A DNA stretch of 62,134 bases, the filler included, from Squatina squatina (taxonomy: Eukaryota): the NCBI GenBank assembly GCA_031763465.1. It is 4 parts of 4 records of this genome, joined end to end, with 100 filler letters (N's around TTAATTAATTAA, not from the genome) between each part and the next. Parts side by side here need not be neighbours in the genome. Positions count along the whole stretch, not along the records: positions 28,257 to 40,252 come from JARFOE010021047.1; 3 more parts are not named here. One strand, 5' to 3'. A program made the position numbers and the translations under genes. Numbering within the stretch: position 1 is the first letter of the stretch; every line of letters begins with the position of its first letter. Below are positions 1,264-44,749 of this stretch, in pieces. The notes below the pieces were generated by a model that ran no database searches, was not told where the DNA came from, and was given only the letters and a program-made list of their open reading frames with translations.

Positions 1264-1489
1264 GTAAGATGCTAATCCATCATTTATGTGGACTCACCAA
1301 AAATAGTTGTCCAATGGTGAGCCTGGTTCAATTAATGTTTTTCAGACTGGCGAATCGGAGCCCTGGTCTGCTCCAGGAATCAGTGCTGGGGTCTCTCTTG
1401 TTCTCCATTGACATAAAATGATTTAGGCATTGGCACAGGAGGAGCAATATTGGAAGCTTGCTAATAATACCAAATTAAGGGTTAAAGAA

Positions 1490-1911
1490 AGAACTTGTAT
1501 TTATACAGTGCGTTTCGTGAACTGAGGACATTCCCAAAGCACTTTGCAGCCAATGAAGTACTTTTGGAGTGCAGTCACTCTTGTGATGTAGGAAGTGCAG
1601 CAGCCAATTTGCGCACAGCAAAGTCCCACAAACAGCAATGTGGTAATGGCGAAATAATCTTTTTTTGGTGTTGTTGATGGAGGGATAAATATTGAGTAGG
1701 ACACTGGGGAGAACTCCCCTGCTCTTCATCAAAAACAGTGCCCTGGGGTCTTTTACGTCCAATTGAGCGGGCAGACAGGGCCTTGGCTTAATGTCTCATT
1801 TGAAAGATGGCACCTCCGACAGTGTGGCGCTCCCTCAGTACTGCACTAGACTGTCAGCTCAGATTTCATGATCAGGACTAAGGAGTGGGTCTTGAACCTA
1901 CAACCTTCTGA
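1490..1911 (-). mobile_element. tRNA-derived Deu-domain SINE (SacSINE1/DeuSINE-like)
   Basis: The reverse strand has a tRNA-like head (tcagaaggttgtaggttcaagacccac), a Deu-like core and a tail ending ...tataaatacaagt. Multiple copies occur in the window. Confidence 0.8.
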
Positions 1912-2369
1912 TTTGAAAGGTTAGCTGGTTTTAACTTCAAGTCCAATATCTAAATATGCTCATGAATTCAGAGTGGTTCACACTGTGGCTGCACTCAATC
2001 TCTGTCTGGTGTTCACCTGCGAGTGATGGGGTATGTGCTCTATACAGCCTGGCTTTCCTTTAGAGTGACTAAGGTCCATTCTGTTCTTGCTGCAATGAAA
2101 GGGTCAGGTGACCCACCCTCTCCCTTGAATTAGTGAGGCTGTTGACATGGGAAAACACAATTATTAGCTGCCTCTTTTGGACAGTCTGTAAGATTTCTAA
2201 TTTATACTAAATCTAGGAGATGCTGGTTGAATCACCTCACTGTTTTCACTGCCTAGCTCCNNNNNNNNNNCAGCAGGTTCGATTAATTATTGAAAATAAT
2301 TGTGTAGTCAAGCTTTCAATGAGACTCAGTAATGTTTGACTTCATTTGCTTCACTCTAATGTGAACCAG

Positions 2370-2589
2370 GACACCCCAAAACAAGAGCCTTCATCACCCA
2401 TGGAGGGACCAATGGAATTTATGAGGCTATCTGCAGTGGTGTACCATCTGTCATGTTACCATTATTTGGGGATCAAGGATATAACGTACAACGCATGGTG
2501 GCTCAAGGTGCAGGTATCGACCTAGATGTAGAACAGATGAGCTCCCACGATCTAGTTAATGCATTAAACACAGTTATCAATGATACCAG
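2370..2589 (+). CDS. UGT1A: UDP-glucuronosyltransferase common exon (220 nt; exon-4 equivalent), absent from the ORF track
   Basis: cag|GACAC...ACCAG|gtcagt. Reads [72 protein letters not shown] and is in phase with the previous exon. UGT1 rather than UGT2 is inferred from EAIC and the neighbouring genes. Confidence 0.9.
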
Positions 2590-4954
2590 GTCAGTAAAAT
2601 GAATTATTCCATTCTTACCTTAAGAAAGAAAGACTTGCATTTGTGTAATACAAACAGAAAATGCTGGAAATACTCANNNNNNNNNNNNNNNNNNNNNNNN
2701 NNNNNNNNNNNNNNNNNNNNNNNNNNNNNNNNNNNNNNNNNNNNNNNNNNNNNNNNNNNNNNNNNNNNNNNNNNNNGAAGTGATTTCCAGCACGGAGCTT
2801 TGCGGGATTTTTGCAAAGCTTGCACTAGAAATCTATCAAACTTTTTTTTTAAAAACGCATGCTAAAAGCGTATATGCTTGGCTTTACCAGCATAAGAGTT
2901 ATAAAAAAAAATTTAGAACAAAAAAAAGTTTGTGGCACATTACTTTAAAACCATTCCCATTAATGTTTTTAAACATTTGAAAAGATTTTTGTTTAAATTT
3001 CAAAAAAATTGTCTTATTTATCTCCTTTTTATTAAATTTTAGTGTTGGGATAGTTGTGTGTTTTTGGAAGTGTTTCTGCACCTAGGGAACCATGCTGCTC
3101 TGGCGTTTTACTCTTGTATCCCAATGATTCCCAGCAACTTTCATCATCTGAAATGTCCTCAAGTTCCAACAGTGTCTGCAGGTTGACTTGCTCAGGTTTC
3201 AGATCATAAAAAGAGTGATCACTGGTGAATCTGCGTGGAGCACTGGGAGTTTCAATATGGACCAAGGACAGTGCCTTCTTGGTCAGTGTCAGTTTAATAC
3301 TCGTGGAATGTTCCGCTTCTAATTCAGAGCAGCCAGATTTTCCTTCCTTTGACAGAGTCTCCTCTGTGACTCTTTTTCTTGTTTTTTTCTCATTTCACTT
3401 TTAATATACCATGTCACTTCTACAAGATGGTTTTATCTCTCACTACTTCATAACCCGTATACTTCCCTTTCTCCTCTGATGGTATTTTCTTGCAATTTAT
3501 TTTAGTTAAGCCTTCTGCTTCTGTTCCAATAGCTCTACTAATCCTGCTCACCCCCTGTAGTCTCAAACCTAGACTTCTTCCCCACCCCTGACTGCCATTT
3601 TAGTTTAAATCCTACCCCACTGCTCTATTTGCACTTTCTACAAGGATGTTGGTGTCATTTTGGATTAAGTGAAGTTCGCATCTCTTGTTCCAGAACTCAC
3701 TCCAATGCACCAACTCTGACCCTTTCCCTCCTCCACCAGTCCTACAGCCAAACATTGACACTCTTGTTCTTCCTCTCTATAGCCTGTCCTGCATGTGGCA
3801 CAGAAAACAACCCAGAAGTTCACCACCCTGGATGACTTGTTTTTCAATCTAGTTCCTAACTCCTTAAAAGTGGGAGGAAAAGCTGGTTTTAAAGAGAAAC
3901 ACACTGGAGCTGAAATTGCGGACGCAGGCGTCCAACTGGAAAGATTCGTACGAACTTACCTGATGGTCTGGGAGCTGCGAAAACTTGCATTCTTGGACCT
4001 CCACATGTAGGCAGTCGTAGCGGCCCGGGGATCTCTCCAGTGTATGTGGATCGCATACACTGAGGAGATCATGTGGCAGGCCCCAACCAATCAAATAGGA
4101 GTATCCCCCATTCATGCTTCTGCTGATCTCTGCCTTATATGGAGATCAGCAGAAGCATGAACAGGAGATAGTAAAACTGCACAAGCACTTAAAAATAAAC
4201 TTTAAAATCTATTGAAACATTAACATTTAATAAAATTATATATAATTAGACACATACAAAAGCATTTTTGAAAATTCTTTTTAAATGTCTAAAAATATAC
4301 TTACCTTACTGGACATGGTTTTTAAGCAATGTACCACTAATTTATTTTATTTTTACAGTTTTAAAAACTCTTACACTGGTAAAAGTAAGCCTGTAAGCTA
4401 GCTTTTACATTGCATAAAAANNNNNNNNNNNNNNNNNNNNNNNNNNNNNNNNNNNNNNNNNNNNNNNNNNNNNNNNNNNNNNNNNNNNNNNNNNNNNNNN
4501 NNNNNNNNNNNNNNNNNNNNTTCTTGTACACGAAGGTAACCTTTCATGAATTCAAAATAATAATCCCTCTAAGTACTCGCTGAAGCCTGCTATTTTTTTC
4601 TTCACTTCCTGGTTAATTGCGCTGGATTTCCTGATCGGAACATTGCAAAGTTTGTTTTTGCCTGCCCCCTGCTGCCAGCATGCCTTGGTAGATGTTTTGA
4701 ATTGATATACAAGGGTAGATTTTCTGAGCTCATGCTCATGGAGGAAGTACCTTTCATCAGTAACCCACCTGTGATTTTTGTTTTTCAATGCATGGTGCTG
4801 GGGAGGGTGAAGAAATCTACCCTATTGGGTTTGTGTGCTGCTGTCTTCCAATTTTCTATAATGTGTTTTAAAGGCGGAACACCATATACATTTCAAATGT
4901 ACTTAAAATGAATGTTAAAAATCAAGCTGAACATCCCTTTATTTTCTTTTGCAG

Positions 4955-5043
4955 TGAACTTTGAAGCTTTGATCATTGCCATGTCAGTGGTTGGAGGAGT
5001 TCTAATCTTGTCACTGTGTATCTGCTGCTGTTGCTGCTGCAGC
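4955..5043 (+). CDS. PTTG1IP: PTTG1IP transmembrane/poly-Cys exon (3' boundary uncertain)
   Basis: ttttcttttgcag acceptor. Reads VNFEALIIAMSVVGGVLILSLCICCCCCC, characteristic of PTTG1IP. Confidence 0.8.
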
Positions 5044-5629
5044 GTGAGACTTGACAGCGCCAACCTCAATAGTTATCAACAGAATAAATCATGACCGATT
5101 ACCATATATGTATTCGTAAATTCATGAATATATTGATAGACGTTATTGAATAAGTGGGATTTTTTTCACTATAATCTTTATGACCAAAGATACAAAAATA
5201 GATGGTGAGATGTAAGGCCAACACCTACTGGACGACTAAACCTAATCAGTAAAATAGGCCCTTTTTTTGCCCATTTCTTAGAAAATCTGTCTCTCTTGTT
5301 CTGAGAATGTGCCATTTTTATACAGTTCTGTATGCTAATAGATATAATTAATTATTCTGAATGAATGGGCCTGAAATTCAGCGAGGTGCAAAGTTCGGTT
5401 AATCCCTACTTCAGGCGTTAACGGGGTGCTAAACATTCTTAAGGCGCTAAATCGCCGTTTATCGCCTCCAGTGAAATTCGCTAGGCCAAAACTTTTAGTG
5501 CTAAAGTTTAGTACCTCACTGGACAGGCGNNNNNNNNNNNNNNNNNNNNNNNNNNNNNNNNNNNNNNNNNNNNNNNNNNNNNNNNNNNNNNNNNNNNNNN
5601 NNNNNNNNNNNNNNNNNNNNNNNNNNNNN

Positions 5630-5908
5630 CTACTTTCACTCTCTCTCCACTCTCTCTCATTCACCTTCTCTCCTCACCTCTCCTCTCATCTCTTGGCCCA
5701 TTCTCTCTCTCTCTCATCTCTGTCTCCTACTTTCACTCTCTCTCCACTCTCTCCCATTCACCTTCTCTCTCTCCTCTCCTCTCCTCTCATCTCTTGGCCC
5801 ACTCTCTCTCTCTCTCCACTCTGTCTCCTTCTCTCACTCTCTCTCTCTCTCTCCTGTCTCTCCTCTCGCCCTCGCCCATCTCAATCTCTCATCTGTCTCT
5901 CCTCTCGC
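5630..5908. repeat. CT-rich low-complexity/microsatellite tract
   Basis: Near-pure (CT)n/pyrimidine sequence. Confidence 0.9.
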
Positions 5909-6418
5909 ACATTGGCTACTGATACAGCAGCAAACACTTGACTCTGGCAGGAGTCCAGGATCTGATTATGACCCTCTGAGTGGGCCCTTGCTCACCTATC
6001 TGAGACACTATTAGCTGGTGACAGGGCTAGGGCCTTTGCCAGATAGGCTGCTGCTAAGGCAGTTTTGCTACCAATGAGCAGTCTGACACCAGATAGATCG
6101 CAGACACAGAATAAAAAATAACGGAGCAGTCTCACTGAAGAAAACGCATTACTCACTTCTGCCTTGGCTGAGAATCCTAACTCAGCAAAGAAGCTAAAAG
6201 CATAAACAGCTCTCCCTCAAATAGCTTGTTTATAACTATAAGCCATGCCCCACTCTCTCCAGCCCTGATCTACTTATGTCCTTTATACCAAAGGGCGGGG
6301 GAATGGGACTAGCTGAGGNNNNNNNNNNNNNNNNNNNNNNNNNNNNNNNNNNNNNNNNNNNNNNNNNNNNNNNNNNNNNNNNNNNNNNNNNNNNNNNNNN
6401 NNNNNNNNNNNNNNNNNN

Positions 6419-6935
6419 AGGAAGGATATATTGGCCTTGGAGGGGGTGTAGCGCAGATTCACCAGAATGATACCGGGACTAAAAAGGTTAAATTTAAGGG
6501 CTGGATGCACAGACTAGGCCTGTATTCCCTCGAGTATAGAAAATTAAGGGATGATCTAATTGAGGTTTTAAGATGATTGAAGGATTTGATAGGGTAGATA
6601 GAGAGAGAGAGAAACTATTTCCATTGGGAGGGGAATCCAGAACAAGGGGACAAAACCTTAATTAGAGCTAGGCCTTTCAGGGGTTATGTCAGGAAGCACT
6701 TCCTCACACAAAGAGTGGTGGAAATCTGGAACTTTCTTCCCCAAAAAGCTGTTGAGGCTGGGGGTCAATTGAAAATTTTAAAACAGAGATTGATAGATTT
6801 TTGTTAGTTAAGGGTATCATGGGATAGGGAGCAAAGGCAGGTAGATGGAGTTAAGATACAGATCAGCCCAGATCTAATTGAATGGTGGAACAGGCTCGAG
6901 GGGCAGAATGGCCTCCTCCTGTTCCAATATTCCCA
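6419..6935 (+). mobile_element. CR1-like LINE 3' end
   Basis: Decayed ORF2 C-terminus (KDILALEGV*RRFTRMIPGLK...) and a typical CR1 3' UTR (gatcagcc...gaatggtggaacaggctcgaggggcagaatggcctcctcctgttcc). Confidence 0.8.
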
Positions 6936-7293
6936 TGTACAGCTGTGAGAAAGTGCTCTGTGCCATTACCACAACACAGAGGGCACAGAGTAAGTTGAAG
7001 TACCCAGTGAGAAAAGCTGAGGCAGACTTAATCTGGTCCTAATTGGGCAGCACTTGACACGGGAATAAAACTTCTTTGCTCCCGCACGATAATCAATCAC
7101 AAACTACAATGGCCTACTCCTGTTCCTTTGAATAGAAGGTTATGTTGATAGGATGAGATGAAATAGGGTGGGAGGAGGCTCGCATGGAGCTTAAACACCA
7201 GCACATACCAGTTGGGCCAAATGGCCTGTTTCTGCGCTGTAAATTCTATGTCATTCTACGTACAAGCACTCTTTCACAGTCGAAGGCACTTAC

Positions 7294-7835
7294 CAAAAAA
7301 TTATCAGGGTCTGCACCACCAGCCAATGCTACAAAGACCCCGGAGGAGTCATCGATCTCCATCTCGTCCGGAGACCTTTCAAAGTGGACACGCTTCTGCT
7401 CCTCGCAGTCCAGGTAGAGTGCCACCGTCTCATCCTGCACGCTGATGGCGATCTTGGTCCATTTGTTGGTCAAGTGCTCCACCCAGAAGGTGGCAGCCTC
7501 GTTGGTCTCTTGAGAACCAGGCTCTGTGTAGTAGAAAATAATGTTCTGGGATCCATCCTTGACCTCCGAGAGCTTAACTCCGACGTAGATGATTTCCTGT
7601 CTGGCGTCTGTGATGGCAAAGAGCACACCACTCTTTGTGGACGTTGGCTTGATCGTGAAGAGGAGCGAGAAGTCACGGAAGAAGGGGTTTTGAAAATAGG
7701 CTCTGGCTGGCTGTCCAGTGTTCGCATCCGAGCCAAACTCATATATTGGATTCTGGTCAGGACCATACGTCACGGTTATTTGCTTAGGAGGATGGTCTCC
7801 TATCAACTGTAGCAGAGACACGGAATGGTCATTAT
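7294..7835 (-). CDS. COL18A1: Collagen XVIII alpha-1, TSPN/LamG-like domain exon
   Basis: Minus-strand tttag acceptor and gtaagt donor. Reads VSLLQLIGDHPPKQIT...FFRDFSLLFTIKP...YTEPGSQ...LYLDCEE...AGGADPDNFL, matching the COL18A1 N-terminal TSPN domain. Confidence 0.9.
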
Positions 7836-8073
7836 CTAAAGAGGAGGGAACAGAAAAAAGAAACTAGATTTATTAAAGCTAGAATATCAAACTATCGAGG
7901 ACTTCCAGGATGGAGAATTTTTAGGTAGGGTTCTGATTGCTGACCATTCCCATTCTCTGCTGACTCATGTTGGNNNNNNNNNNNNNNNNNNNNNNNNNNN
8001 NNNNNNNNNNNNNNNNNNNNNNNNNNNNNNNNNNNNNNNNNNNNNNNNNNNNNNNNNNNNNNNNNNNNNNNNN

Positions 8074-9233
8074 TGCGTGTGCGTATAGTGTGTGTATAAT
8101 GTGTGTGTAGTGTGTGTATACTGTGTGTGTCTTGAGTGTGTGTCTATAGTGTTTATATAGTGTTTGTACAAAATGTGTGTGTATAGTGAGTGTGTATAGT
8201 GTGTGCACAGTGTGTGTGTATGGAGTGTGTGTGTTTATAGTATGTGTGTGTATAGTGTGCATGTATAGGGTTTGTGTGTGTAGTGTGTGTGCAGAGCGTG
8301 TGTGCAGTGCGTGTGTGCAGTGCGTGTGTAATGTAAGTGTATAGTGTGCATGAATAGTGTATGTGTATATCATGTGCACTTAGTGTGTGTATGTATCATG
8401 TTTGTGTATCGTGTGTGTATCGGGTATGTGTAGTGTGTGCATATAGTGCATGTTTATATTGTGTTTGTTAATAGTGCTTGTGTGTATAGTGTGTATAGTG
8501 TGTGTGTATAGTGCGTGTGCATAGTGCATTTGAATAGTGTGTGTAGAGTGTGTGTGTAGTTTGTGCATAGTGTGTATAGTGTGTATGTATAGTGTGTGTT
8601 AATAGTGCTTGTGTGTATATAGTTTGTATAGTGTGTGTGCATAGTGTGCATGTTAATACTGCTTGTGTGTATAGTGTGTGTGCATAGTGTGTGTGTAGTG
8701 TGTGTGTAGTGTGTGTGTAAAGTGTATGTGTATTGTGTGTGTATAGTGTGTGTGTACAGTCTGTGTGCATAGTGTGTGTAGAGTATGTGTGTAGAGTGTG
8801 TGCATATAATGTGTGTGTATAGTGTGCCCCTAGAGTGTGTGTGTGGAGAGTGCGCGTAGAGTGTGTGCGTAGAGTGTATGTGTGTAGTGTGTGTATTGTG
8901 TGTGCATATAGTGTGTATAGTGCATGTTTATATTGTGTTTGTTAATAGTGCTTGTGTGTATAGTGTGTGTGTATAGTGTGTGTGTGCATAGTACCTGTGT
9001 ATAATATGTGTGTATAGTATGTGTGCATAGTGTATGTGTATAGTATGTGTGTAGAGTGTGTGCGTAGAGTGTGTATGTAGAGTGTTTGTGTATAGTGTGT
9101 GTATAGTGTGTGCTTGTGTGTATAGTGTGTTGTGTGTTGTGTGTGCGCGCAGTGTGTGTGTATAGTGTGTGTGCATAGTGTGTGTACGGTGTGTGTGTAT
9201 AGCGTGTGTGTTGTGTGTGTATATAGTGTGTGT
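8074..9233. repeat. GT/TA-rich low-complexity satellite
   Basis: Degenerate (gtgtgtata)n array. It produces spurious His/Thr/Tyr ORFs. Confidence 0.92.
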
Positions 9234-9339
9234 NNNNNNNNNNNNNNNNNNNNNNNNNNNNNNNNNNNNNNNNNNNNNNNNNNNNNNNNNNNNNNNNNNN
9301 NNNNNNNNNNNNNNNNNNNNNNNNNNNNNNNNNATTGTC

Positions 9340-9562
9340 TGGAATGTCTTCTGCATTCCAGACAATCACACTATCATGTTACCCTTTGTCCGTCCCTCTC
9401 CCCTCCCACCCACCCCCCACCCCTTTGCCTGTCAGTGCTTTAAAACTTGCTGTATTTCTGGCGTTTTCAGTTCTGACGAAGGGTCATCGACCCGAAACGT
9501 TGACTCTGTTTTTCTCTGCACAGATGCTGCCTGACCTGAGTTTTTCCAGCAATTTTTGTTTG
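9340..9562 (+). mobile_element. Penelope-like element terminal remnant with hammerhead-ribozyme-like core
   Basis: ctgacga-a-gggtc atc gaccc-gaaacgtt followed by cagatgctgcctgacctgagtttttccagca. Related sequence occurs at 2640-2676 and 57950-58140. Confidence 0.55.
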
Positions 9563-28256: not shown

Positions 28257-29346
28257 CCACCCATCTAGATAAACTAGTTTGAAGACAATTGGCAACACCT
28301 GGGCCAGCATTTCCTTTCTGGCATATTCATTCAGAAGACAATTTGAAGAAGATGATTTGGTTAACAAAATCCAGGGTTTCGAAGCAATCACGCCCAGACA
28401 AAACACAGAAACAGTTTTTATTTCAAGTGTTGTCAAACAACAAGGGGGACAAAATTACAGTAATCCAGCTCGGTGGCCCAGACTTTCGGTCATCGAATAA
28501 ACATCGACAACACATATCCATAAGCAAACAAATCCCAGAAGAGGCAGTCTGAAAACCCCTGGAGAGCTATCCTCCTCCCCGATGAAAGTCAAGACCTCGA
28601 GGGTCCAGGATGAGCTGGGATTTGCTCAGGACTTTAAAAAGTGCATTTTAATATTTTAATACAGACGAGACAGAATTTGGGCGCGAACGGAATTCACAAT
28701 CCAAAGATTATAACTGGCTCTCAGCAAGAGGCTTTGTTAGCTTCGCTTCGCTTTGGTTTGAGCTTCGGGAGAAGAGATGATTAGATTATGGTTCATGAGA
28801 CTCGTTTCAGGACTTCGAGCTGCGCCCAGCTCCGCTTCACCAGCAACATCGAAACACACTCAGAGAAGAAACACCGTGATGGTCCAGTGGAGCCGTTCTC
28901 CACGGCACAACTGAACAGAAAGAGGACAACCTCCTGAGTAAGCAGACCGCTCGACAGAAATCGGAAAGGGCTTTGTTCGGGAAAATCCTTACCGGGCCAT
29001 CAAAGAAGGCATCGAGGTGCGAGACCTCCACCCTGCCGCAAGGACACCATCAGGGAGACCCACGAGACACCCAGCAATGCAGTTGCCTCGGATTGGTCAG
29101 CATGGCACCCATGGTCTACACCCTCCTGAACAGTTCGGGGCCCAAACAGGGGACTCAGCGGCCGCTCTCTTAGAATGTAGAATTAGTGCGTTAGTATTTA
29201 GCAGCCATTCGTATGGCCTGCCTAAATTGAGGCAGAATAAATTCGACCCGGGAATCGAAAAGCGCTGGTATTCCTCAGTTCTCCCTTTTTAACAGTGTGT
29301 GTACAGCGAATTGATACTAAAGCGAATAAAGCTCCTACTCTCTTTG
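28257..29346 (+). repeat. Probable 5' LTR (partial; start lies outside the scaffold, end and PBS would fall in the N gap)
   Basis: Non-coding, CpG-rich segment directly upstream of gag, with AATAAA at 29325-29330 just before the gap. No overlap with the 3' LTR stub could be shown. Confidence 0.45.
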
Positions 29347-29681
29347 NNNNNNNNNNNNNNNNNNNNNNNNNNNNNNNNNNNNNNNNNNNNNNNNNNNNNN
29401 NNNNNNNNNNNNNNNNNNNNNNNNNNNNNNNNNNNNNNNNNNNNNNNNNNNNNNNNNNNNNNNNNNNNNNNNNNNNNNNNNNNNNNNNNNNNCCCGAAAC
29501 GTCCATTTGCCTTTAAGTCCTTGTCACACGAACCACCAGACAGCCGACGGCTCTCGGCCTACACATATAAAGGTTCGAGTGTCTGGGCCGCTGTCGATCG
29601 CACAGGAAGACATGAGGTTGGGCAGGAGTGTGTGCGACTTACAGATTTTGGCACCCCCAGAGGGGACCTCAGGGCAAGGAA

Positions 29682-31900
29682 ATGGACGTAGAGGTTGTAG
29701 ATGAGCAAACGCTCCTGAAAGTGTGGGAACAGGCCATATTAGATTATGCCAATACCAAAGGTAACGTGGCTAGTACGTGGGTCCAAACCATCTACCGATC
29801 TGTGGACCCCAGGTTAGGGCCAGCCCGGTGGATGAGGTCGCAGGAACACACGCGCCCCTGCAGGAAGGCTGTGTGGCTGCTGTGCCTCCTTTAGCAGAAC
29901 CAGGTGCTCCGAGAGTGAGGGGAAGAGCTGTGGAGGAACACTGGCGCACAGAGCAGGAGGTCATTGCCAGAGATGTCTTCTCTCGCCAGTATTTGGAGAG
30001 GTTCCATAAACCTGAGCAGGATGTCAGGAGTCACGGGCAGAAACAACCCGGCTCCACACTGACCTGGTGGAGGGCAATGACTCGTTAAAGGCGTGTTGGG
30101 CAGAGAATCTAGAGCTCATGAAGAATGCATCTCAGATGGAAGGCCGCCTCAAATACGTAGGGGGTGCCTACCAGTTGATGCAGGATCAAAACTACGAAGC
30201 TGCTGATCATAGCCAAATTATGGATAAGATCCGGAGCTAAAGCTCGCCCTGTCAAAGGCCAGAGGTATAGTTTGCCATACGGCACTGGCAGCACTGCCGC
30301 TTGGGGACACGGATGAGCTCAGCGACAGTGAGGATACTGCTGGCCAGGTGAAAGCCAGCGCTAGAATCGCCCCCAATTCCCTGCGGCATTCATAGACCTT
30401 AAACCGGTCGGAGGACCCCGCACCCCAGGATTGCTCCCCAGGCCAAGACAGTACGGGAGAATCAACTAATGAGACGGGCGGCCGAACCCAGGGGGGATCC
30501 GGATCCCGGAGGAACATAGAAACAGGCGGCCGACCACCAGAGGTGTTCAGATCATGACGCATAGTTGGTCAGGCCTGCAGGGATGATGGCTGGGGCGAGC
30601 CCAGACCAGACTAGTTTTCAGACGAATCCCCGCAGTATGGTATCAACCTAGAGGAAGTGGCTCCCATGTGCTCAATAACCCAGTGGTGGTATGGTCCGCC
30701 TGGGCTTGCCGGAGGGAAAGGACCAGTTCTGGGGTAAAATCCTGTTCCCCATAGCGCCAGTCAGTTGCTAGCTTTGCTGGCCAACACCCCGCTGCTCCAG
30801 ATGTGCGGAGATCCAAGGATGCATTTTGACTGCATTAGTCAGCTGGTTGACGACCTTTCGTGCAATACGGAGGAGCACAACAAACTGTTGTGGCTATCTG
30901 GAGGGCACGATTCACCAGCGACGACCTCCACAAATCCCTGCACCTGGAGCTCACACACGTGATCTCCAAGCACAGATTCTAAAAGCCATGGGTTTCGACA
31001 TGGGCCGTCCATTTGCTCAAGTCGAAGTCACATGCCAAATGCCCACAGAAACCTCAGAGTAATTTGCGAACCGCTTATGGGCTGTTTATTCACAGTGCTT
31101 CGGCGGACGGAACCCGATGCGGCAGAACGTATGACCACCCGACCGATGCCAGTGGCTGCGGCTGCTGGTGTCTAAGTGTTTGCCTGAACTGTCCAATTCA
31201 GCGAGAACGTGTTTTGACCAATTAGCCGTCACCCACACAGAGGCGGAGGTGCTCCGGAGACTCGGTCTAGCCTACCGAACCCTCACTATCATTGACACCA
31301 CTCCCAAGCCTGAGCTTGGAAACTGTGGATGAATTCCTCCCCACGCCACAGCCGGCATGCCCGCACCAGGGGCCGCACAACCCCCGGTGTACATGTCCGG
31401 TCAGGTAGGCCCACTGATGGCTTCGTCAGCAGGAGCTCTTGCCGTTTACCTGCCGGCTTTCGGTGTTCTGCAGTATTTTGCACCAGGTGTAGTACAAACT
31501 GCACCACAGGGAGCCATGGCACCAACCTCTGTGTCTGCGGATCCAATTCACCAAGTACATGTAGTCACTCAGCCAGGAAACCCAAACCACCTTCCAGCTA
31601 ACCATCCGAACTGTCCACAACCGCAAGGTTACGCGTACCCGACATCACAGCCCACGCTCTACAGCTCCACATCACGACAGCTTGTGTCAGAGTAGAAACG
31701 GCGTCTACGACTCCACAGGCCAGCCAGGTCCCGATTCCCGCCCCGGCATTCAGTATACAGGGGGAGGAAAAAAAATGGGAATGGAGGCAGGAGGGTAGGA
31801 CAGGCACGGCCGATGTGTTAAGGGTGCGGCAGGCCGGGGCATTAGGGGCAGAAATGCCCAAATGCCGGGAAACTGCCCAATAAAGCAGCAAACCGAAAAC
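29682..31900 (+). pseudogene. gag: gag (disrupted)
   Basis: MHR-like CQMPTETSE*FANRLWAVY at 31033-31089, a Pro/Gln-rich linker at 31357-31695, a basic stretch, then a CX2CX4HX4C knuckle C*GCGRPGH*GQKC at 31816-31857. The start codon is a guess. Confidence 0.75.
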
Positions 31901-32134
31901 TCCCAGTTAAAATGGTGCAAATAGGGAGCCCCATTGTACCACGGCTGGATCAGCAGGTGAGGATAGCCGAGATCCTGCTGGTCATGAAGGAATCGTGTGG
32001 GAAAAGGCCCCATTGTGACCGTCTGCCCAGCCGCCACATCCCACACACAAAACGCTCCATCCTAGACATCACCCCAGTAGCTCGGCTCGACAAAGCCTGT
32101 TCTGCTTGGCCACTTCTGCTAGGAAAGGTGGGAT

Positions 32135-32451
32135 TGCCCCTGTGTAGAGGTGGTGGTAGAGGGGCACCTCGGGGATTCCCTGATCCACACTGGGATGCCG
32201 AGCATGGTGCTCCAGGATCCCGACTCCGAGAACTCCCCTCTTTTGAGCTGGACCCCATGTATCTTGGCAGGGTTGACGTGAGACGAGCAGGCTGGTGTCA
32301 TGTCCAATCATTGCCCATCAATTTAGGGGAATTACAGATGCACTGGAAAACCGTCTTGGTCCAGTGGAGTCACTGCGGGTCAGGGGTGATCGGGGCCGCT
32401 TTTCGGCTGTCCCATCGGGTCATCCTGGACCAGGAGAAAAACTACTTTTGA
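32135..32451 (+). pseudogene. pro: Retropepsin-type protease (disrupted)
   Basis: Frame 2 reads PCVEVVVEGHLGDSLIHTG (LIDTG with GAC>CAC at 32186), then ILAGLT. Frame 1 then reads LPINLG...GVIGAAFRLSHRVILD, equivalent to ILGxDFL. Confidence 0.7.
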
Positions 32452-32609
32452 GGCAGCAGGACAGGATGGAACAATCGTACAGTGACTGTAATCCCAAGGG
32501 AATGATGAGGAAAGGGCTCGTGTGTACGATGCAGCCCAAGACCAACTACAACCATGAAGCCATGATCATGGACTGCCTCCGCGCATTCCACAGTGTCCTC
32601 AGGGGACAC

Positions 32610-35600
32610 CTTGGTGCATTCGCCACACACAAGCACAATTGTGGACGAATGACCAGGCGGAGAACCGGATAAAGGGGGAACCGATGTCCCGGCCTATCCA
32701 GCAGTATAATTTCCCGCGAGAGGCTGAAGCAGATTTGAACACTGCCCTAGAGTCCCTGACTGGCAGGTGGTTCTCAGGCTGATAGCGACCCATGTTAAAA
32801 CTCTTCTGTGGCCGGTCAGAAAACCTGATGGCTCGTGGCGAGCAACCGTGGACTATCAGGTCCTGAATAAGAACCACGCTGCTTGTGCCCACACTGTGGC
32901 ACTCCAGGCCCATTTGATAGCGACAATCCCCGACACCACCACGGTCTTCTCAGCACAGGTTTGGAGCATCCCATTGCGCCTAGAAGACCAGTACAAATTT
33001 GGGTTTGCATTCCACGGCCAACAGTATACGTGGACGGTCCTTCCAAAAGGCGTCCCCAACAGTCCATCCATATTTCACCAGAGTATGGCGAACGTGTTAA
33101 AGCCGTTCAGCAAGGCTACTCAGCTGGTGCAGTATGTGGACGACCTCCTGCTGTTCACAGAAAGCGAAGAGGAGCATGTGCTATTGCTGGAGGAGCTGCT
33201 GGAATTGCTCTACCAGAGTGGGTTGAAAGGCCCAAGTAGGTCAGTGGGAAGTGAAATTTCTTGGGCTGAAAGTACGAGGAGGGGAAAGAGCCAGTGATGA
33301 AGCCAGACGGGAAGCTGCACAGCAGTTACCCTTACTCAGCGATGTGACGGGGATTAGGTCCTTTCTGGGGCTGACTGAGTGCTCCTGGAACTTCAACCAG
33401 GGCTAACCGACGACAGCTGTAATCCTGCTCTGACTCTGCATAAATGTGTCACCCGGGAATGGGATACTTCCTTCCAAGACGCTGTCGAGCAATTGAAACG
33501 TGACCGACAGTGTGCCCCAGCCCTGGGAGCCATAAATGCAAAGAAAGAGTTCTTCTTAGAGGTGGCAGCCAGTGAGGACAGCTTAGGAGCGGTTCTGATG
33601 CAGGAACGCCACAGCACCTTGAAGCTAGTGGTATAAGCAGCGCGGGTAGTCACAGGAGTCGAGAAGAGGTACTAGAACTGTAAACGGCAACTTCTGGCCA
33701 CTTACTGGGCTGTAAAGCATTTTCAGCCCGACACGAGCCTTTCCTCCATCACTATGCTCATGAACCACACACCAACAGCAATGTTGTTGGACGGGCAGAT
33801 AAAGGATGGGACCGTGAGCATAACGCACTGGACCCTGCTCCTGGCACAATACCCCATCCATGTCCAGGTGCTAGTGGAACCCCGGCTAGCTTTAAATTTG
33901 TTATAAATAGAAAACCCACACATATGTACAGTGGAAGGTGTGTGGGATCAGGATCTGGGTTTTAAAGCCGGCTTATGTCACGGCGGACGGGACATATATA
34001 TATAAACGGGTCGAGCTTCATCTTGCATGAGAAGAGGCTCACTTACTGTGGAATGTATGACCCTCAGACCAGGGTGTCCAGGGTGATTAAACTTCCAACT
34101 GAGATGGGCACTCAACACACCGAACTGGCTGCAATCGCATAAGTGGTTACCCACCCTCATCTGTCCCCCACACCGACAGCATATGCTCACACTCCATGTT
34201 TACGTGCAACACCTGCACGGAGTAACTGGTTCTATGGTGCAGACGGGGATTCACGTCCGCGGACGGGAGACCCCTAACAACAGCACCCCTCCCAACGAAA
34301 ATCCTGCAGGTCGTACAGGGAGGGGAGGGTCACTCCCTTCATAACATCAGGGCACAAACAAAACTCGAGCACAGGTGGGAAGGCCGACGAGCTGGCCATG
34401 GAAGGGGCACGCACGTGGGATGAGTGGGATCCTTATGCCTCTGACCACATCGCTGCACCCTTTGCCTTGCTGCAAGGGCAGGCACCGTCCACAGGGGTCC
34501 TTTTAGCCCAAGACCTCCGATCATTACAGAAGGGAGACCCAAAGCTCAAAGAAACCATGTTAGCCAAGGGGGCCGGACAGGCAGCCAAGGCACCGTTTGT
34601 GGCAGACAAGTTCACCTTATGGGAGGGAATGCTGTTTAAGGGGAGAGCATTTTGTGCTCCCGACCGAGCACCGGAGAGATGTTCTGAGGTTGGCACACGG
34701 GGGAACAGGGGCAGGACACCACGGTGCTGAGTCCACGTGGGCAAGTGTGGAAGAAGTTGGCTGGTGGCCGAAGTTGCGGGAGGAGGTGAAGGAATATTTC
34801 GCAGAATGCCTCATATGCGCCGCAAATCACACTGACCCTCAGCGACGGAAGGTCCCCATGGGACACATACACCGGGTCGAAGTACCCTGGAAGTCCCTCC
34901 AGACAGAGTTCATTGATCCCTTGCCACTGAGCAGCAAGGGGAATAAACAGTGCCTGATAGTGGTAGATACGTTCACCACGTGGTTTTAAGCATTCCCCTG
35001 TAAGACAGTCACAGTGCGAGTGATGGCGCACACACATGTCCGGGAGGTCCTCTCCCGAGGGGGCTGCCACAGATGGTCGAATCTGAACACGGGGACTCGC
35101 TTCACAGGGCAAGTGATGCAGGCCACAATAAAACTGCTCGGTATTGAAGGGAAGTGGCATGTGTCTCACAACCCACAGTCATCAGGGATAGTTGAGCGCA
35201 TGAACTGGACCCTAAAAGAGAGATTGAGGAAGGATACCGGTGAGTCCCCGCGCCGGTGGGACGGATCCCTTCCCCTCATTCTCCTCGGGATCCGAGCTCG
35301 CCCTTCCCGCAGCACGGGACACTCCCCACATGTTCTAATGACGGGATGGGAGAGGAGAACACCAGTGCATGTTCTCGCCCCGATCTGGTGCGTGGCACAA
35401 CTGGAGCAGCTGACTCCTGACAGGTTTGTCAGTCATCTGCACGAAGCTCTCCGCCACTTGCACCAGAATGCCGCCAACACCATTGGCCGAACAAAATGTG
35501 TCAGAGCCCAGCCGCCCAAAGACATCGGATATTGGGGATAAGGTCATGGTGAGGAATTACGCCAGGCTTGGTGCATGCAGACCCCTTTATTCTGGATTGT

Positions 35601-35887
35601 ATAACATCGTCGATAATGTCTCTCCCATGATGTATGCCGTGAAGCCCCCGAGGGGAAGAAATTGGTTGCACATCAACCAGTGCAAGCATTATACCCCAGC
35701 AAGAGAGAAAAGAGTGTGGGAGGATCCTCGATCTGGCCCAGATCACTGGATAGCCGACTGTGGGCTGCCAAGTACAACATGGGAGGAAGACACGGGTGAT
35801 CCACAGGAGGCAGTGGAGCACGGAGGAATGCTGCCTCAGATCGGGCCTGGCTGGGATCCACCTTCGTTCCCAGGACCTGGCAACTAA
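32610..35887 (+). pseudogene. pol: pol: RT, tether, RNase H, integrase (disrupted)
   Basis: RT: LWPVRKPDGSWRATVDYQVLNK...YTWTVLPKGVPNSP...QYVDDLLL (YVDD at 33133-33144). Tether at 33541-33860. RNase H at 33990-34410. Integrase: H-GH...CLIC, IVVDTFT, HNPQSSGIVERMN, and IGDKVMVR...YSGLYNIV. Confidence 0.92.
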
Positions 35888-35970
35888 TCTGGCGAGGGAG
35901 CGGCAGAGAACGGAGTCCTCACTTGTTGCTGGGACGGCACCCGCTTCTGGTGGAAGCCGACGCCAGCACA

Positions 35971-36004
35971 ACATTTTTCTCTTTCTTTGTTTGGCAGAAC
36001 CATG
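35971..36004 (+). promoter_or_regulatory. Probable env splice acceptor and start codon
   Basis: Polypyrimidine tract tttttctctttctttgtttggcAG (AG at 35996-35997), followed 4 nt later by aaccATGa opening a hydrophobic signal-peptide-like stretch. Confidence 0.65.
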
Positions 36005-38353
36005 AAGACCTCAAGTGGACAAGAAGCAATAATAGCACTCTGGATCTTCCTCACCAACTTCACATTTTATGGACACGCCCGAAGGGGCGACACCGAACGC
36101 TCACTGGTATTTGGCTGCACCGGAGGCTATAGCTCATGGTCACTGCACGAGGTGGGGGGCGACTCACCAGACAGAACGTGCTGGCACTTAGAGGACGATG
36201 GCCCGGGTGGGTAGGCTCAAATTCCACCAGTTTTATGGGAGGTCCAGATTTCACTTTCGGGGAGGCCTCGGTCAACTGCCCCAGGGTGCGAGTGATCCTG
36301 CAAAGGGTGAGGGTAGCTGATGGCAGAAGGGTCTGCCAGCGTTGCAAAGGCGAAATTCCCCGGGACAGTTGGTGGTGGCTTCGAAGGTTGGACGCACATA
36401 AGGCAGAAAAGACTGCGGCCTGGGAAATGTTAGGGAACAACACTTAGTGGAATGTTATCCCAGATCAGGAGGGAGCACAACTGTGTTGGAATAAGTAGTG
36501 GACCAAAGAGCAGGGGCTGTACATATGCGTTTGTGGGTACCTGACAGTTTGTTCCATTGGGGTTCCCACAGCATTCCACCGACAGTGGCAGGATGAGGGA
36601 AACGTTATTGGCTTGCACAGGAGTATGGCGACAAGCAATGCATTTAATCCCCTGGGGGTTTTACATGCGACTGAGAACCTGACACAGAAGATTGGACGAC
36701 ACCCCACCCCCGACCGGTTAGGGATGATGAGACTCACTGCCCCCACACCAACACCGACCCCGAGAATGGCCGAGTGCTGATACCAAATAAGAAAGTACTA
36801 TTCCACGAGGTCCAGTACCAAGTGGCCTCAGTGGTGTTGAACATGACCCAGGTCCAGCTACCACCCTGCTGTCCCACAAAGGCTGGACGTTTATAAGAGC
36901 ACTGCTCCGCGATATGTACCAGCAGTTCTTTGAACTCGATTACAGTGATTTAAAAACACCCCATGTCTACCCCAAGGACACCAATCGACCCGGGAGTGGG
37001 AAACATGGCCTGATCAACGATGCTGCCACTATGTTCAACACGGGAACGTCTGTAATATATAGGTTAGATGAAGCTGCTTTAGGCATACAAATAAGTAAAC
37101 TCAAAGGCCAGATGCGAAAGGTCCTTGAGGAAGGGAATAATATTGTAACTCAGGAACTGCATCAGGTTCAAGCCATGATGATCCACCTGCGGGAGGTGAT
37201 AACACAGCATGAATCCCACGCACATACCATCAATGCCCTTATAACCAAAGACAACAATGCCTCAGTGGAAGCGACGCGGAATGAAGCATGTGTGTTTTAT
37301 GGCAGTCGGTTATTGAAATAGGGATGCAGTATTTGAAGGACCTGAGAGTGGGTTGCGTTCCCTCATTGATAACTAATCGCCATCTGATGGCTATCATTCC
37401 GTACTGGAACAACCTGAGCCCTTGACAGATCAGAGCTATAGCAGAGGCCTACCCAATCGCCATGGACTGTGGTAAGTCCAACCACACTGTGATGGGGGTA
37501 GTATTACGGATTCCTGTGCTGGACGATCCCAGCATGTGTGTTCCATATTGGGGTGATCAGGGACGGGGTCTATATGAGGCACAGGAACGTCCCACCCTTT
37601 GTTGTCCAGTGGAAGACCAGGATGGTGGGCACCAATGTGAAGTGGTGCTGCGTGCATGGGAGAATTTGGTTCTCTGCCCCCAGCACATCAACCCTTTTGA
37701 CAATCTGGTGTGTGGGTTTTAATCACAAAGCGTTGAGCCGCTGCAATGCAACATGGAGGCGACTGCAGGCGAACACATATTGCCTCAGGTGGCATACCAG
37801 AGCAACGGAACGTACTGGGTCACATCTTCAGTGATAAGATATCGGTTCCACCGGGACACGATATGTCCGGTGACCGCGTGTACTTTCTGTTGTAAATCGC
37901 AGGCCAATTTTCAGCTTGTTAACTGCCTCATCCTCCCAATCCGTGACCTCACCATCACCATCACAGCCAACAGCTCCATTGCAGACCTGCATGATTACGT
38001 CGCCACATTGGGGTACGTAATTCCCCCGTTACTGGAACACCTCACGGCTCTCCTCAAAGCCGTTGAAGTGAGCCGAACTCACTTCTACCAGCTTGCGCAA
38101 ACCAATGGGAGAGCAGAAAGGCCACAGCCGCGACCGGAGTGGGGGATTCTTGTGGGATTTCTGGATGAACGTGGAAATATCAACCTGGATCACAATCGCC
38201 TCGTACACTCTGGTCATCATCCAGTTGGTATTGGTTATATAACTGCTAAAATGTCTTGCCGAGGCCACCAACAGGCAACACGGTGGTATCGCCTCATAGC
38301 AACGTGGGACATCCGTGTCAGAGCCCTTCATCTTCCCCAGCTTTGATTTGTAA
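36002..38353 (+). pseudogene. env: env-like glycoprotein (disrupted): signal peptide, Ig-like domain, F-like class I fusion ectodomain, TM anchor
   Basis: N-terminal AIIALWIFLTNF. Decayed cleavage site RPGSGKH|GLINDAATMFNTGTSV followed by a long heptad-like helix. Cys-rich block (LCPQH...VCG...CNM...NGTYWV...CPV...FC). W-rich juxtamembrane segment and TM WITIASYTLVIIQLVLVI*LLKCL at about 38186-38257. Confidence 0.78.
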
Positions 38354-38828
38354 GAACCGACAGCATCCAACTCCCCGGTACTACCCTTCTAAACTTGTCT
38401 TTTTCCTCTTTTCACTGGTTATTTATATCAAGTCTACATTAAATAAAGGTAAGCATGGGTATTTTGTGCTGTTAAATTATATAGAAGGCACTCATAATAT
38501 GAGGTGCCGATTGCGGGGAAACTTTTAGAGGTATCCGTTTTTTCCTACTTTGTACAATACGGATCTCTGTGTAGTGTATGTATTACTAATTATGTTCATC
38601 AAGTTTGGAGTGCCCTAAAGAAGATCAGTCGCCCATCCCACCCAAAGACAGGGAAGGGGAGCGGGGTGGATCCCCGGGGAACCCAACAACACAGCTTAAG
38701 AGCCTGAGTCTAAGGGACGGTGGGGAGGTAAAATTTGGTTTATGAGAGACTGCTGCAGAGTCCGATGACACCAATTTTGGCGTATTCCTTCACCTGAGGG
38801 ATCAGGAAGCTGAGGCAGCTTCACCCTC

Positions 38829-38999
38829 GAAGGGGCATCTGTAAGAATCGGGACAAAATGGTGTGTGTTTCAGATCATAAAACCAGGACCACGCAACATG
38901 GGACAAAATGGTAGACATGGGTTCGGAAATTTAAAACACAGAACACGAACCGGCAGGAAGTGAATTACTGCAAAACTCTGTCAATCAAAGAGACAATAC
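38829..38999 (+). repeat. Polypurine tract and start of 3' LTR (truncated by CR1)
   Basis: gaaggggcatc followed by TGTAAG at 38840. Tandem GGACAAAATGGT motifs at 38851 and 38901. The sequence switches to CR1 at about 39000. Confidence 0.55.
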
Positions 39000-40252
39000 A
39001 AGGTAGTAATCTCTGGATTACTACCAGTGCCACGTGCGAGTCAGAGTAGAAATAGGAGGAATATTCAGATGAATAGGTGGCTTCAGAAATGGTGCAAGGG
39101 GGAGGGATTCAAATTCGTGGGACATTGGAACCGGTTCTGGGAAAGGTGGGACCAGTAAAACCCGACAGTCTGCACCTGGTCAGGAGGGGAACAAATGTCC
39201 TGGGGGGAGTGTTTGCGCGTGCTGTTGGGGAGAGTTTAAACTAATATGGCAGGGGGATGGGAACGAATGCAGGGAGACAGAGGGACGTAAAATGTGGGCA
39301 GAAGCAAAAAGTAGGAAGGAGAAAAGTAAAAGTGGAAGGCAGAGAAATCAAGGGCAAATATCAAAAAGGGCCACCTTACAGCATAATTCTATAAGGGCCA
39401 AGAGTGTTATAAAAACAAGTCTGATGGCTTTTTTGTCTTAATACGAAAAGCATTCGTAATAAGGTAGATGAATTAAATGTGCAGATAGTTGTTGACGGAT
39501 ATCATATAGTTGGGGGTACGGAGACATGGTTCCAGGGTGACCAAGGCTGGGAGCTGAACATTCAGGGGTATTCAATATTCAGGAAGGTCAGACACAAAGG
39601 AAAAGGAGGTGGGGTAGCTTTGCTTTTTGGAGAGGATATTCACGCAACAGTAAGGAAGGACATTAGCTAGGATGGTGTGGCATTTGTATGGGTAGAGCTG
39701 CGAAAAACTAAGGGTCAGAAAACGCTTTTGGGAGTTGTGTGCAGGCCACCAAACAGTAGTAGTGAGATTGGGGATGGAATCAAACTGGAAATTTGGGATG
39801 CATGCAATAAAGTTACTGCAGTTATCATGGATGACATTAATCTACATATACATTGGGCTAACCAAATTGGTAATGCTACTGTGGACGAAGATTTTCTGGA
39901 ATGTATACGGGATGGTTTTCCAAACCAATAGGTCGATGAACCAACCAGAGAGCAGGCAATCCTAGACTGTGTGTTGTGTAATGAGGAAGGAATAGTGAGC
40001 AATCTTGTTGTGCGAGGCCCCTGAGGCAAGAGTGATCATAATATGGAAGAATTCTTCATTAGGATGGAGAGTGAGATCGTGAATTCAGAGACAAGTGTTT
40101 TAAACCTAAAAAAAAACGGTAACTTTGATGGTATGAGACGTGAATTGGCTAGGATAGACTGGCGAGTGAAACTTCAAGGGTTGACGGTGGATATGCAATG
40201 GCAAACATTTAAAGATCACATGGATGAACTACAAAAATTGTTCATCCCAGTC
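39000..40252 (+). mobile_element. CR1-like LINE: ORF1 SGNH-esterase C-terminus and ORF2 AP-endonuclease (disrupted)
   Basis: VVISGLLPVPRAS...WLQKWCKGEGFKFVGHW...LHL, then SIRNKVDEL...TETW...QGYSIFRKVR..KGGGVALL...EPTREQAILD...SDHN. Confidence 0.88.
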
Positions 40253-43545: not shown

Positions 43546-44150
43546 GGGGGGAAATTGCGTACTGCCATGGTTGGGGGCGGTAACAGCTGCAGGATGGGAC
43601 TTCCTGCGCCAGACGCATGAGCTGAATTGGGCTTACCGCCCCCGAGAGGAAGTGGAGCGCAAAATCTCACGTTCCACTTCCTCTCGGGGATGGGACCAAG
43701 GCGCTAGCCAATGTGAATTTTCCAGTGCTATGCAGAGGGACGTGTAGCGCTGGTGGGAAAACAGGGCCCTCCTCTTCCATTAAAAGGGAGGGCACGCTGC
43801 CGACTCTGCAGTGGGGTGAGGGGCCACTACTTCGCCACCGGGGAATGGGGTGCCATGGCAACAGCTCGGCACAGAAACGGAGAGCCGGGCTGCACCATGG
43901 CGTCATGGACCCCATGAATTCCACAAGGCAAGGCCGCTACCGGTAAATCGGCCATTTTAAATAAAGCGCTAGCCGCACCTCCCCTTTAATTTTCGCCCTG
44001 CGAAAGGCCTACGGGCCCGGTACGTGTCCCGTGAAGCTGCCGCTGTCATCGCCCGTGGCAGCCTCATGTATCGCTACCGAATTTCTGCTCCGGGGTGAAA
44101 ATGGGTCGCATCGCACATGGATGACATCGTCATCGCTGATGCAGCGGCCC
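43546..44150. mobile_element. GC-rich Harbinger-type MITE fragment
   Basis: Begins gggggaaattgc. CpG-rich, with ccccttta motifs like the element at 21085. Confidence 0.45.
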
Positions 44151-44152
44151 GA

Positions 44153-44330
44153 GGCACTATCGGCAACAGCGGGGCACTATCGGCAACAGCGCGGTACTAT
44201 CGGCAGGAACAGGGCGATATCGGCAGGAACAGGGCAATATCGGCAACAGCGGGGCACTATCGGCAGGAACAGGACACTATCGGCAGGAACAGGGCAATAT
44301 CGGCAGGAGCAGGGCAATATCGGCAGGAAC
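44153..44330. repeat. 20-bp minisatellite (CGGCARSARCRGGGCAMTAT)n, about 9 copies, running into a gap
   Basis: Directly visible tandem units cggcaacagcggggcactat and cggcaggaacagggcaatat. Confidence 0.9.
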
Positions 44331-44749
44331 NNNNNNNNNNNNNNNNNNNNNNNNNNNNNNNNNNNNNNNNNNNNNNNNNNNNNNNNNNNNNNNNNNNNNN
44401 NNNNNNNNNNNNNNNNNNNNNNNNNNNNNNCTAGCCTCCCCAGCCCGAAACACTCATCCAAGAGAACAGATGGGCCACCTGCTTCCAGGCTTCTGCTCAC
44501 ACTGATCCAATGGCTGTTAGAAGCTGTGTGATAATGTTCAGCTGACAAATGTTCATTCTGCATTTGCCCTATGGACAGTGTTAAGATTGGCAATTCAACA
44601 GAATGGCCGACTTTGGTTGTGGGACAAGTTCCACCGTTCCATGTCACTACGTGTTGCAGTTTCAATGTTTTCTGCACCACCATTTGGCAGCCGTTTGTAA
44701 CCTACAATATGTGTTTGCAAATGTTCAAAGTATTGTACATGCTTCTCAC

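Follow-up and report, generated by a model that had tools for sequence, protein, structure and literature searches.

Envelope (Env) proteins resembling the paramyxovirus fusion protein (F) have been published for lokiretroviruses (PMC7947760; PMC9040795), foamy viruses (PMC11468914) and errantiviruses (10.1101/2023.10.26.564294). Fernandez et al. (2024; PMC11468914) assign orthoretroviral Env to class Ia and foamy Env, together with F, to class Ib, and four scenarios for the origin of retroviral Env were left open by Wang and Han (2020; PMC7947760). In the available parts of the latter study the Env of Loki-Str is similar to PF00523 (E 2.2e-7) and none of the five chondrichthyan genomes screened bears a Loki mark. 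Endogenous retroviruses (ERVs) related to snakehead retrovirus (SnRV) are known from elephant shark (CmiERV lineage I; PMC4422223). SnRV itself is by listing an unclassified orthoretrovirus, and it carries accessory open reading frames. Here, we describe the env gene of an ERV in Squatina squatina (NCBI GenBank assembly GCA_031763465.1). The window, that is, the whole stretch of DNA that was analysed, is 62,134 nt long, filler included, and all positions count along it; env lies in the part taken from JARFOE010021047.1 (28,257 to 40,252).

We consider it likely that this gene is the broken env of a dead ERV of the SnRV branch (clade Huo, class III-related), and that it encoded a class Ib fusogen of the paramyxovirus F type with an additional N-terminal arm. 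The F-type assignment taken by itself is very probable from the sequence comparisons. It is reached by three indirect lines: an alignment to a family of teleost Env proteins, the neighbours of that family in the ESM Atlas and motifs shared, as judged by eye, with lokiretroviral Env.

Structure of the env gene and its relatives

The gene can be divided into seven consecutive features.

36002..36075, + strand: start codon and signal-peptide-like stretch; the ATG at 36002 lies behind a pyrimidine tract ending in AG and is followed by the hydrophobic run IIALWIFL (putative signal function)
36076..36731, + strand: N-terminal arm of Env, broken, of about 230 codons; it may be a split Ig-V-like domain for receptor binding
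36732..37006, + strand: F2-like segment, aligned to residues 240-324 of the teleost protein P0016, with RPGSGKH (36986-37006), a degenerate cleavage site, at its end
37007..37075, + strand: fusion-peptide-like stretch, its first residue aligned with the teleost-family residue that follows the furin site
37076..37310, + strand: long helix, equivalent to heptad repeat A (HRA); residues 62-143 of an AlphaFold2 single-sequence model
37311..38020, + strand: β-rich and Cys-rich head, equivalent to domains III/I/II, broken; colinear with the teleost family, with Loki Env motifs by eye
38021..38266, + strand: second helix (equivalent to heptad repeat B, HRB), Trp-rich membrane-proximal stretch and transmembrane segment (TM), from hydropathy and from alignment to the teleost-family WWDW and TM

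The first-pass annotation had env start near 36750, with a short F2-like N-terminal subunit and early cleavage in place of a surface/transmembrane (SU/TM) division. The env peptides that it quoted are all there, in about the same places and in the same order, albeit in three frames, but the ATG is about 750 nt further upstream and the first third of the gene had been missed. A stretch of about 230 residues precedes the F2-like segment, and the N-terminal subunit, counted from ATG 36002, is therefore long (335 codons before the fusion peptide). With the arm present, both products of precursor cleavage, the N-subunit and the C-subunit, would be long.

The gene is spread over three frames. Its reading frame breaks about five times (near 36.86, 37.30, 37.54, 37.61 and 38.07-38.14 kb; these positions are those of one best alignment and are uncertain by tens of bases), and there are stops at 37423, 37720 and 38240. 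From the residue after RPGSGKH to the start of the TM there are 394 codons, close to the 400 or so residues estimated earlier. The TM, at 38189, contains the most hydrophobic 19-mer of any env frame (mean hydropathy 2.4). At the present-day cleavage site there is no R-X-[KR]-R, the furin consensus having been lost in the window copy. The 23-residue fusion-peptide-like stretch has 9 Gly, Ala, Ser or Thr residues, 11 hydrophobic residues (Ala included) and four charged ones. For the 144-aa open piece that covers the long helix, AlphaFold2 run on the single sequence predicts one continuous 82-residue helix (pLDDT about 80-94), which agrees with the helix of about 80 residues proposed earlier. The order seen in class Ib proteins, namely a cleavage site, a hydrophobic fusion peptide and a long HRA helix, is thus found here from the site register and the predicted helix, as is a C-subunit ectodomain of about 400 residues in which a β-rich and Cys-rich head (12 Cys in the head blocks) precedes HRB and the TM. 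The combination typical of gamma-type Env, an immunosuppressive domain with CX6CC in a short TM ectodomain, was not found: neither motif occurs in the three env frames, as the first-pass annotation had stated.

Relatives of the gene were reached through the rest of the element. The window pol led to P0001 (the nearest pol, 46% identical), a conserved integrase motif led to the contig L001, and the L001 env retrieved 45 proteins, most of them named as teleost. L001, from a metagenome collection, contains a near-complete ERV at 1440-8892 (gag, protease-reverse transcriptase, tether, RNase H, integrase and an env interrupted by one stop codon). Most of the 45 unannotated teleost proteins are 62-90% identical to the L001 Env, and one cluster of them has 444 members. 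The family includes P0013-P0043, NCBI 'uncharacterized' proteins from carp, herring, eel, zebrafish and others, and none of the 45 carries a Pfam Env label. For the family alignment, 29 of the 45 were used, leaving out 13 partial or chimeric sequences as well as P0032, P0038 and P0044. A basic-x-basic-R site followed by D/E-L is present in 24 of these 29 rows, and CX6CC and the immunosuppressive domain are absent from all 29. In many members of the family the reading frame is open and RXKR is intact. In P0055 (Silurus meridionalis 'k23', 478 aa), a host-annotated protein, an Env-family piece (72%, covering 32% of the query) is joined to I-set/V-set Ig Pfam domains, either perhaps through a fusion of gene models or because an env was co-opted.

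A frameshift-aware glocal alignment of P0016 residues 240-715 to the window gave a score of -23, compared with -119 ± 14 for column-shuffled sequences (maximum -74, n = 60) and a maximum of -99 among real-DNA controls (n = 70). The alignment is colinear along 36732-38266, with 95 of 454 aligned residues identical (about 21%). It places the family furin residues K323/R324 on the window K/H at 37001-37006 and the first fusion-peptide residue on G37007. When columns were shuffled in blocks of ten, the score was never reached in 300, 100 and 100 trials with three scoring schemes (z 6.0-6.5), and the local frameshift-aware score of 50.4 exceeded those of all 152 controls (45.9 at most). Judged by these alignments, the window env is a colinear homologue of intact teleost ERV Env proteins. 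Within the arm, the motif WTKEQGLYIC at 36499 resembles the W-T-x-x-[KR]-E-G-x-Y-C of 14 of the 29 family rows; the regular expression was picked after the motif had been viewed, and it has one match in the six frames of the window. The arm of the teleost family is modelled weakly as an Ig V fold, and the window arm is possibly an Ig-V-like receptor-binding domain, now split.

In the ESM Atlas, Fusion_gly leads the clusters for the whole of P0016 (0.94, from 203 of 256 features, with the family on 18% of members), followed by coronavirus S2 (0.93). With residues 240-690 alone, Fusion_gly (0.90, with the family on 83% of members) and Baculo_F (also 0.90) come out on top. These scores are leads and not alignments; values of at least 0.9 arise in 4-10% of shuffles. 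Among the Atlas rows listed for residues 240-690 there is no TLV_coat, GP41 or foamy cluster. The third line is a comparison with the Env of Loki-Bsp, made by eye and unscored, in which a series of motifs recurs in the same order (Loki-Bsp first, as given in the available part of the source): GRIP and GCVP, AIPIAVD and AYPIAMD, GFILNLPII and GVVLRIPVL, NVGFWQD and HIGVIRD, CP..NPF..LCG and CP..NPF..VCG, and PRV..W and PQV..W.

The element and its polymerase

Env closes a GC-rich island (about 29 to 38.4 kb in the window) that carries a retroviral gene set on the + strand in the order gag-pro-RT-tether-RNase H-IN-env (RT, reverse transcriptase; IN, integrase). Every gene is interrupted by stops and frame breaks. 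The genes upstream of env are as follows.

29682..31950, + strand: gag, decayed, from frame translations and its position 5' of pro
32150..32761, + strand: protease region, decayed; tblastn of P0001 residues 2-204 (26% identity)
32764..34071, + strand: reverse transcriptase (LPKG, QYVDD) and tether; Pfam RVT_1 (E 2e-17) and RT_RNaseH_2 (E 2e-18), 49% identical to P0001
33993..34667, + strand: second (true) RNase H and linker, broken, giving a dual-RNase-H layout; tblastn to P0001 residues 628-855
34642..35692, + strand: integrase; Pfam Integrase_H2C2 (E 4e-13), 57% identical to P0001 and 33% to the L001 integrase

The bounds of gag are inferred, because neither Pfam nor tblastn with the L001 gag pieces gave a match; a CCHC zinc-knuckle pattern, interrupted by two stops, lies at about 31816-31857. 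In P0001 the counterpart of the second RNase H (residues 628-770) matches Pfam RNase_H with E 2e-18. The roughly 300 nt from the last integrase similarity to the start of env (35690-36000) contain a short open stretch and a pyrimidine-rich site resembling a splice acceptor.

The element is a dead, multi-copy ERV, and its present env copy is unable to make protein. Over 28300-38950, all 30 bins were matched by short contigs in four of four runs (from a single study), mostly 80-95% alike, and the element is for this reason taken as one of many diverged copies. It is less depleted of CpG (observed/expected 0.54-0.72) than its flanks (0.35-0.38). No long terminal repeat (LTR) pair was found in the window, and at 38350-39000 there is no 3' LTR that pairs with the 5' region. 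From about 39000 onwards there is a very high-copy repeat (summed depth >38,000), which we take to be a CR1-like LINE, and the flanks of the element contain SINE- and CR1-like repeats, presumably those of a cartilaginous fish. No RNA dataset is listed among the sequencing runs matching the element; viral-contig scans gave no match, and an Rfam search and a tRNA scan gave no relevant match. The window also contains 40 runs of N and two tandem arrays, at 8064-9370 and 44133-44332, with units of 11-13 nt and 20 nt.

The RT suggests which described branch is nearest. The window has LPKG and QYVDD, with LPQG in P0001 and MPQG in L001, and a PTVA-like motif as in SnRV. In the available part of dataset S3, PFG occurs in all 24 Loki RT rows, whereas SnRV, murine leukaemia virus (MuLV), feline foamy virus (FFV) and walleye dermal sarcoma virus (WDSV) have LPQG. 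Counted by hand over 117 RT columns, identities to the window number 61 for SnRV, 45 for Loki-Oja, 44 for Loki-Pfl, about 42 for FFV and about 41 for MuLV. A tree of 13 RT rows, which omits P0010, P0011, P0052 and P0053 and is without SnRV, Loki and foamy references, splits the window, P0001, L001 and P0056 from nine gypsy-type RTs (support 100/99). The RT motifs and the highest hand-counted identity make a backbone of the SnRV branch (clade Huo) quite probable at the sequence level. Viruses of that clade have one zinc knuckle in Gag and the order LTR-gag-pro-pol-env-LTR; the window showed a single CCHC pattern and the order gag-pro-pol-env, and no LTR pair was found in it. The span of the element, about 9.5 kb, is similar to the 9.56 kb reported for CmiERV-I (PMC4422223). 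In the passages available from PMC4422223, PMC6001957 and PMC12193657, no description of an SnRV-clade Env as F-like was found. A Ty3/gypsy errantivirus backbone was rejected from the dual RNase H and the RT tree, and a stand-alone endogenous paramyxovirus from the place of env behind the integrase.

Evidence against the assignment and alternative origins

A number of results weigh against an F-type Env on an SnRV-branch backbone. Direct searches with the window env were uniformly negative: Pfam gave no family for the three env frames and nothing relevant for five env pieces, a PDB sequence search gave nothing relevant, a word-based homologue search with the helix region gave no match, and hhalign of the 144-aa piece to the teleost family was not significant. 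With the HMMER profile of that family the F2-like start ranked first in the six window frames, at only E 0.87. The alignment is uneven, the post-helix half alone giving a z of 2.9 and being beaten by one of 109 DNA controls, and the whole-arm alignment to the family is not significant (z 0.8). A heptad test was not significant for either helix (the score was reached by 460 and 788 of 2000 shuffles). Profile searches with the teleost family found no Pfam Fusion_gly or PDB match, and the AlphaFold2 model of the P0016 core is unusable (pLDDT <50 over 234-690, core mean 40.5), so that no fold comparison with F was obtained. To these are added the shuffle rate of the Atlas scores, the fact that for parts of the window head Loki Env is, by eye, a closer counterpart than the teleost family, and a backbone placement that comes from motifs and a hand count and not from a tree with SnRV, Loki and foamy references.

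The fold searches themselves yielded no match for the single-sequence model of the 144-aa piece (Foldseek, E 0.001 or better) and helical-hairpin noise, with no F protein listed, in the Foldseek and VIA rows for the P0016 core; as the core model is poor, the latter say nothing against an F fold. A weak Foldseek row for the P0016 model, WDSV Env (BFVD A4GTG3; E 2e-3, TM 0.07), is not evidence.

The nearness of the head to Loki-Bsp Env raises the question of recombination, in which an SnRV-branch gag-pol would have captured its env from a lokiretrovirus and the F-type Env would have been acquired locally instead of being a long-standing trait of that branch. Domain swapping is described as frequent in retroviruses in the available text of PMC7947760, and identity to the teleost family amounts to only about 21%. 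However, L001, which has a retrovirus-type RT (MPQG) grouping with that of the window, has a homologous Env with the arm motif, and the arm is absent from Loki Env; a single recent capture fails to explain both Envs, and we regard this origin as unlikely.

A true lokiretrovirus with the standard F-like Env would be the first in cartilaginous fish and, given the absence of a Loki mark from the five genomes screened, would be new. The F-like Env with its Loki-like motifs and the dual RNase H (tether and RNase H) fit such a virus, although the latter is common to all retroviruses and hence is not diagnostic. The RT does not fit the Loki clade, which is marked by PFG and by P-L-S-R-W-P or S-G-W-P: at the level of motifs and hand count, LPKG stands in place of PFG, Q stands ahead of YVDD, the PTVA-like motif is that of SnRV, and the counts favour SnRV. 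Nor does the N-terminal subunit, as the Loki Env sequences compared lack the arm and have a short N-subunit with RXKR (about 115 codons before the fusion peptide in Loki-Bsp, from the available sequence, against 335 here). We consider this origin quite improbable. The lokiretrovirus link made in the first-pass annotation thus holds for Env; it does not hold for the RT, which has canonical-retrovirus motifs and is nearest to SnRV among the printed references counted.

The element might instead be a foamy-like ERV of fish (clade Tu), its Env being F-like because foamy Env is. Foamy Env belongs to class Ib, and its C-subunit is comparable in length (Env is cleaved after 570 and TM2 begins near 948, in the part of PMC11468914 available), and P0001 strongly matches foamy protease-RT and integrase structures. 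P0001 nevertheless scores higher with RT-RNase H of the MLV type, the FFV count falls well below that of SnRV, and the window gag has a CCHC knuckle, which according to the available text of PMC2717909 is absent in spumaviruses. The window Env also has a short putative N-terminal signal and an N-terminal insertion where foamy Env has a long membrane-anchored leader peptide and a receptor-binding domain (RBD) between the F2-like strands and the furin site. A foamy-like origin is accordingly very improbable. The statement that a foamy Env match would refute the F-type proposal was mistaken, because foamy Env is itself F-like (PMC11468914, available text). As a whole, that proposal stood in its core, class Ib and not a gamma-type TM, on indirect evidence, and did not stand in the early cleavage, the lokiretrovirus link beyond Env or the foamy test.

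Finally, a gamma- or epsilon-type SU/TM Env or a non-fusogenic membrane protein, its F look arising from pattern-reading of decayed sequence, would agree with the want of a direct F match, the heptad tests and the Ig-V-like N-terminal RBD described as typical of gamma Env (available text of 10.1101/2024.03.17.585361), but is hardly credible given the 394 codons between cleavage site and TM, the lack of CX6CC and immunosuppressive domain in the window and all 29 relatives, and the significant colinear homology to a family with F, baculovirus F and S2 as its Atlas clusters and no TLV_coat or GP41 among the rows listed.

Proposed mechanism and comparison with known Env proteins

For an F-type Env with an N-terminal arm, a mechanism can be proposed by analogy with the class Ib proteins discussed in the available text of PMC11468914. 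The precursor would enter the endoplasmic reticulum through its signal peptide and form trimers, and a host protease would cut it at the site that is now RPGSGKH. The N-subunit, consisting of the arm and the F2-like strands, would remain in the head, and the arm, possibly Ig-like, would bind a receptor on the host cell. After receptor engagement the long helix (HRA) would extend and the fusion peptide would enter the target membrane; the second helix (HRB) would then fold back on the long helix and the membranes would merge.

If this is correct, an F-type Env on an SnRV-related backbone would break the class Ia/Ib split, would favour those scenarios with an ancestral F-type Env and would suggest that fusion of the F type is ancient and widespread among retroviruses. 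We put forward, tentatively and with less than even confidence, that a class Ib fusogen was the ancestral Env of all retroviruses, kept in lokiretroviruses, in foamy viruses and, with an Ig-like arm, in the SnRV-related fish branch, and that the gamma/beta SU-TM form is a later replacement in the Orthoretrovirinae; the arm may be the forerunner of the IgV-like RBD in gamma Env, or a parallel to it. The window copy, dead and heavily decayed, is one data point. An F-type Env of this kind also directs attention to a large family of teleost proteins, intact and unannotated (45 matches), on which the fold could be solved. In the open literature, to which the search was confined, no statement of SnRV-branch ERVs with an F-type Env and N-terminal arm was found, and such an Env is unmentioned in the available passages of PMC8922424, PMC12287698, PMC10435555, PMC13709493, PMC11089739, PMC12583693, PMC2717909, PMC6001957, PMC12193657 and 10.1101/2024.03.17.585361.

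Among known systems, the SnRV clade is like the window element in its RT motifs and RT identity, and the teleost ERV Env family is like the window Env in its colinearity over 454 residues, the position of the cleavage site, the arm motif and, in L001, a retrovirus-type pol; it differs in its low identity and in its many open members with an intact RXKR. Lokiretroviral Env, as described in the available part of PMC7947760, has the same succession of signal peptide, F2-like segment, basic site, fusion peptide, long helix, Cys-rich head and TM, but lacks the arm of about 230 residues, having about 100 residues between signal peptide and RXKR. The F0 proteins of paramyxoviruses and pneumoviruses (PF00523), baculovirus F (PF12259) and the F-type Env of errantiviruses have the linear layout of the window env and include the nearest Atlas clusters of its teleost relative; they are without an N-terminal arm, and no similarity of the window Env to them was detected at the HMM level. 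In paramyxoviruses the attachment protein is separate. Foamy Env is like the window Env in being a retroviral Env on an F scaffold with a long C-subunit and an added receptor-binding module, and differs in carrying its RBD as an insertion immediately ahead of the furin site and in keeping its leader peptide anchored in the membrane (PMC11468914, available text). The added arm of the window Env is placed ahead of the putative F scaffold, unlike the foamy insertion before the cleavage site, and its N-terminal position is that of the added module in the coronavirus spike, as presented in the same source.
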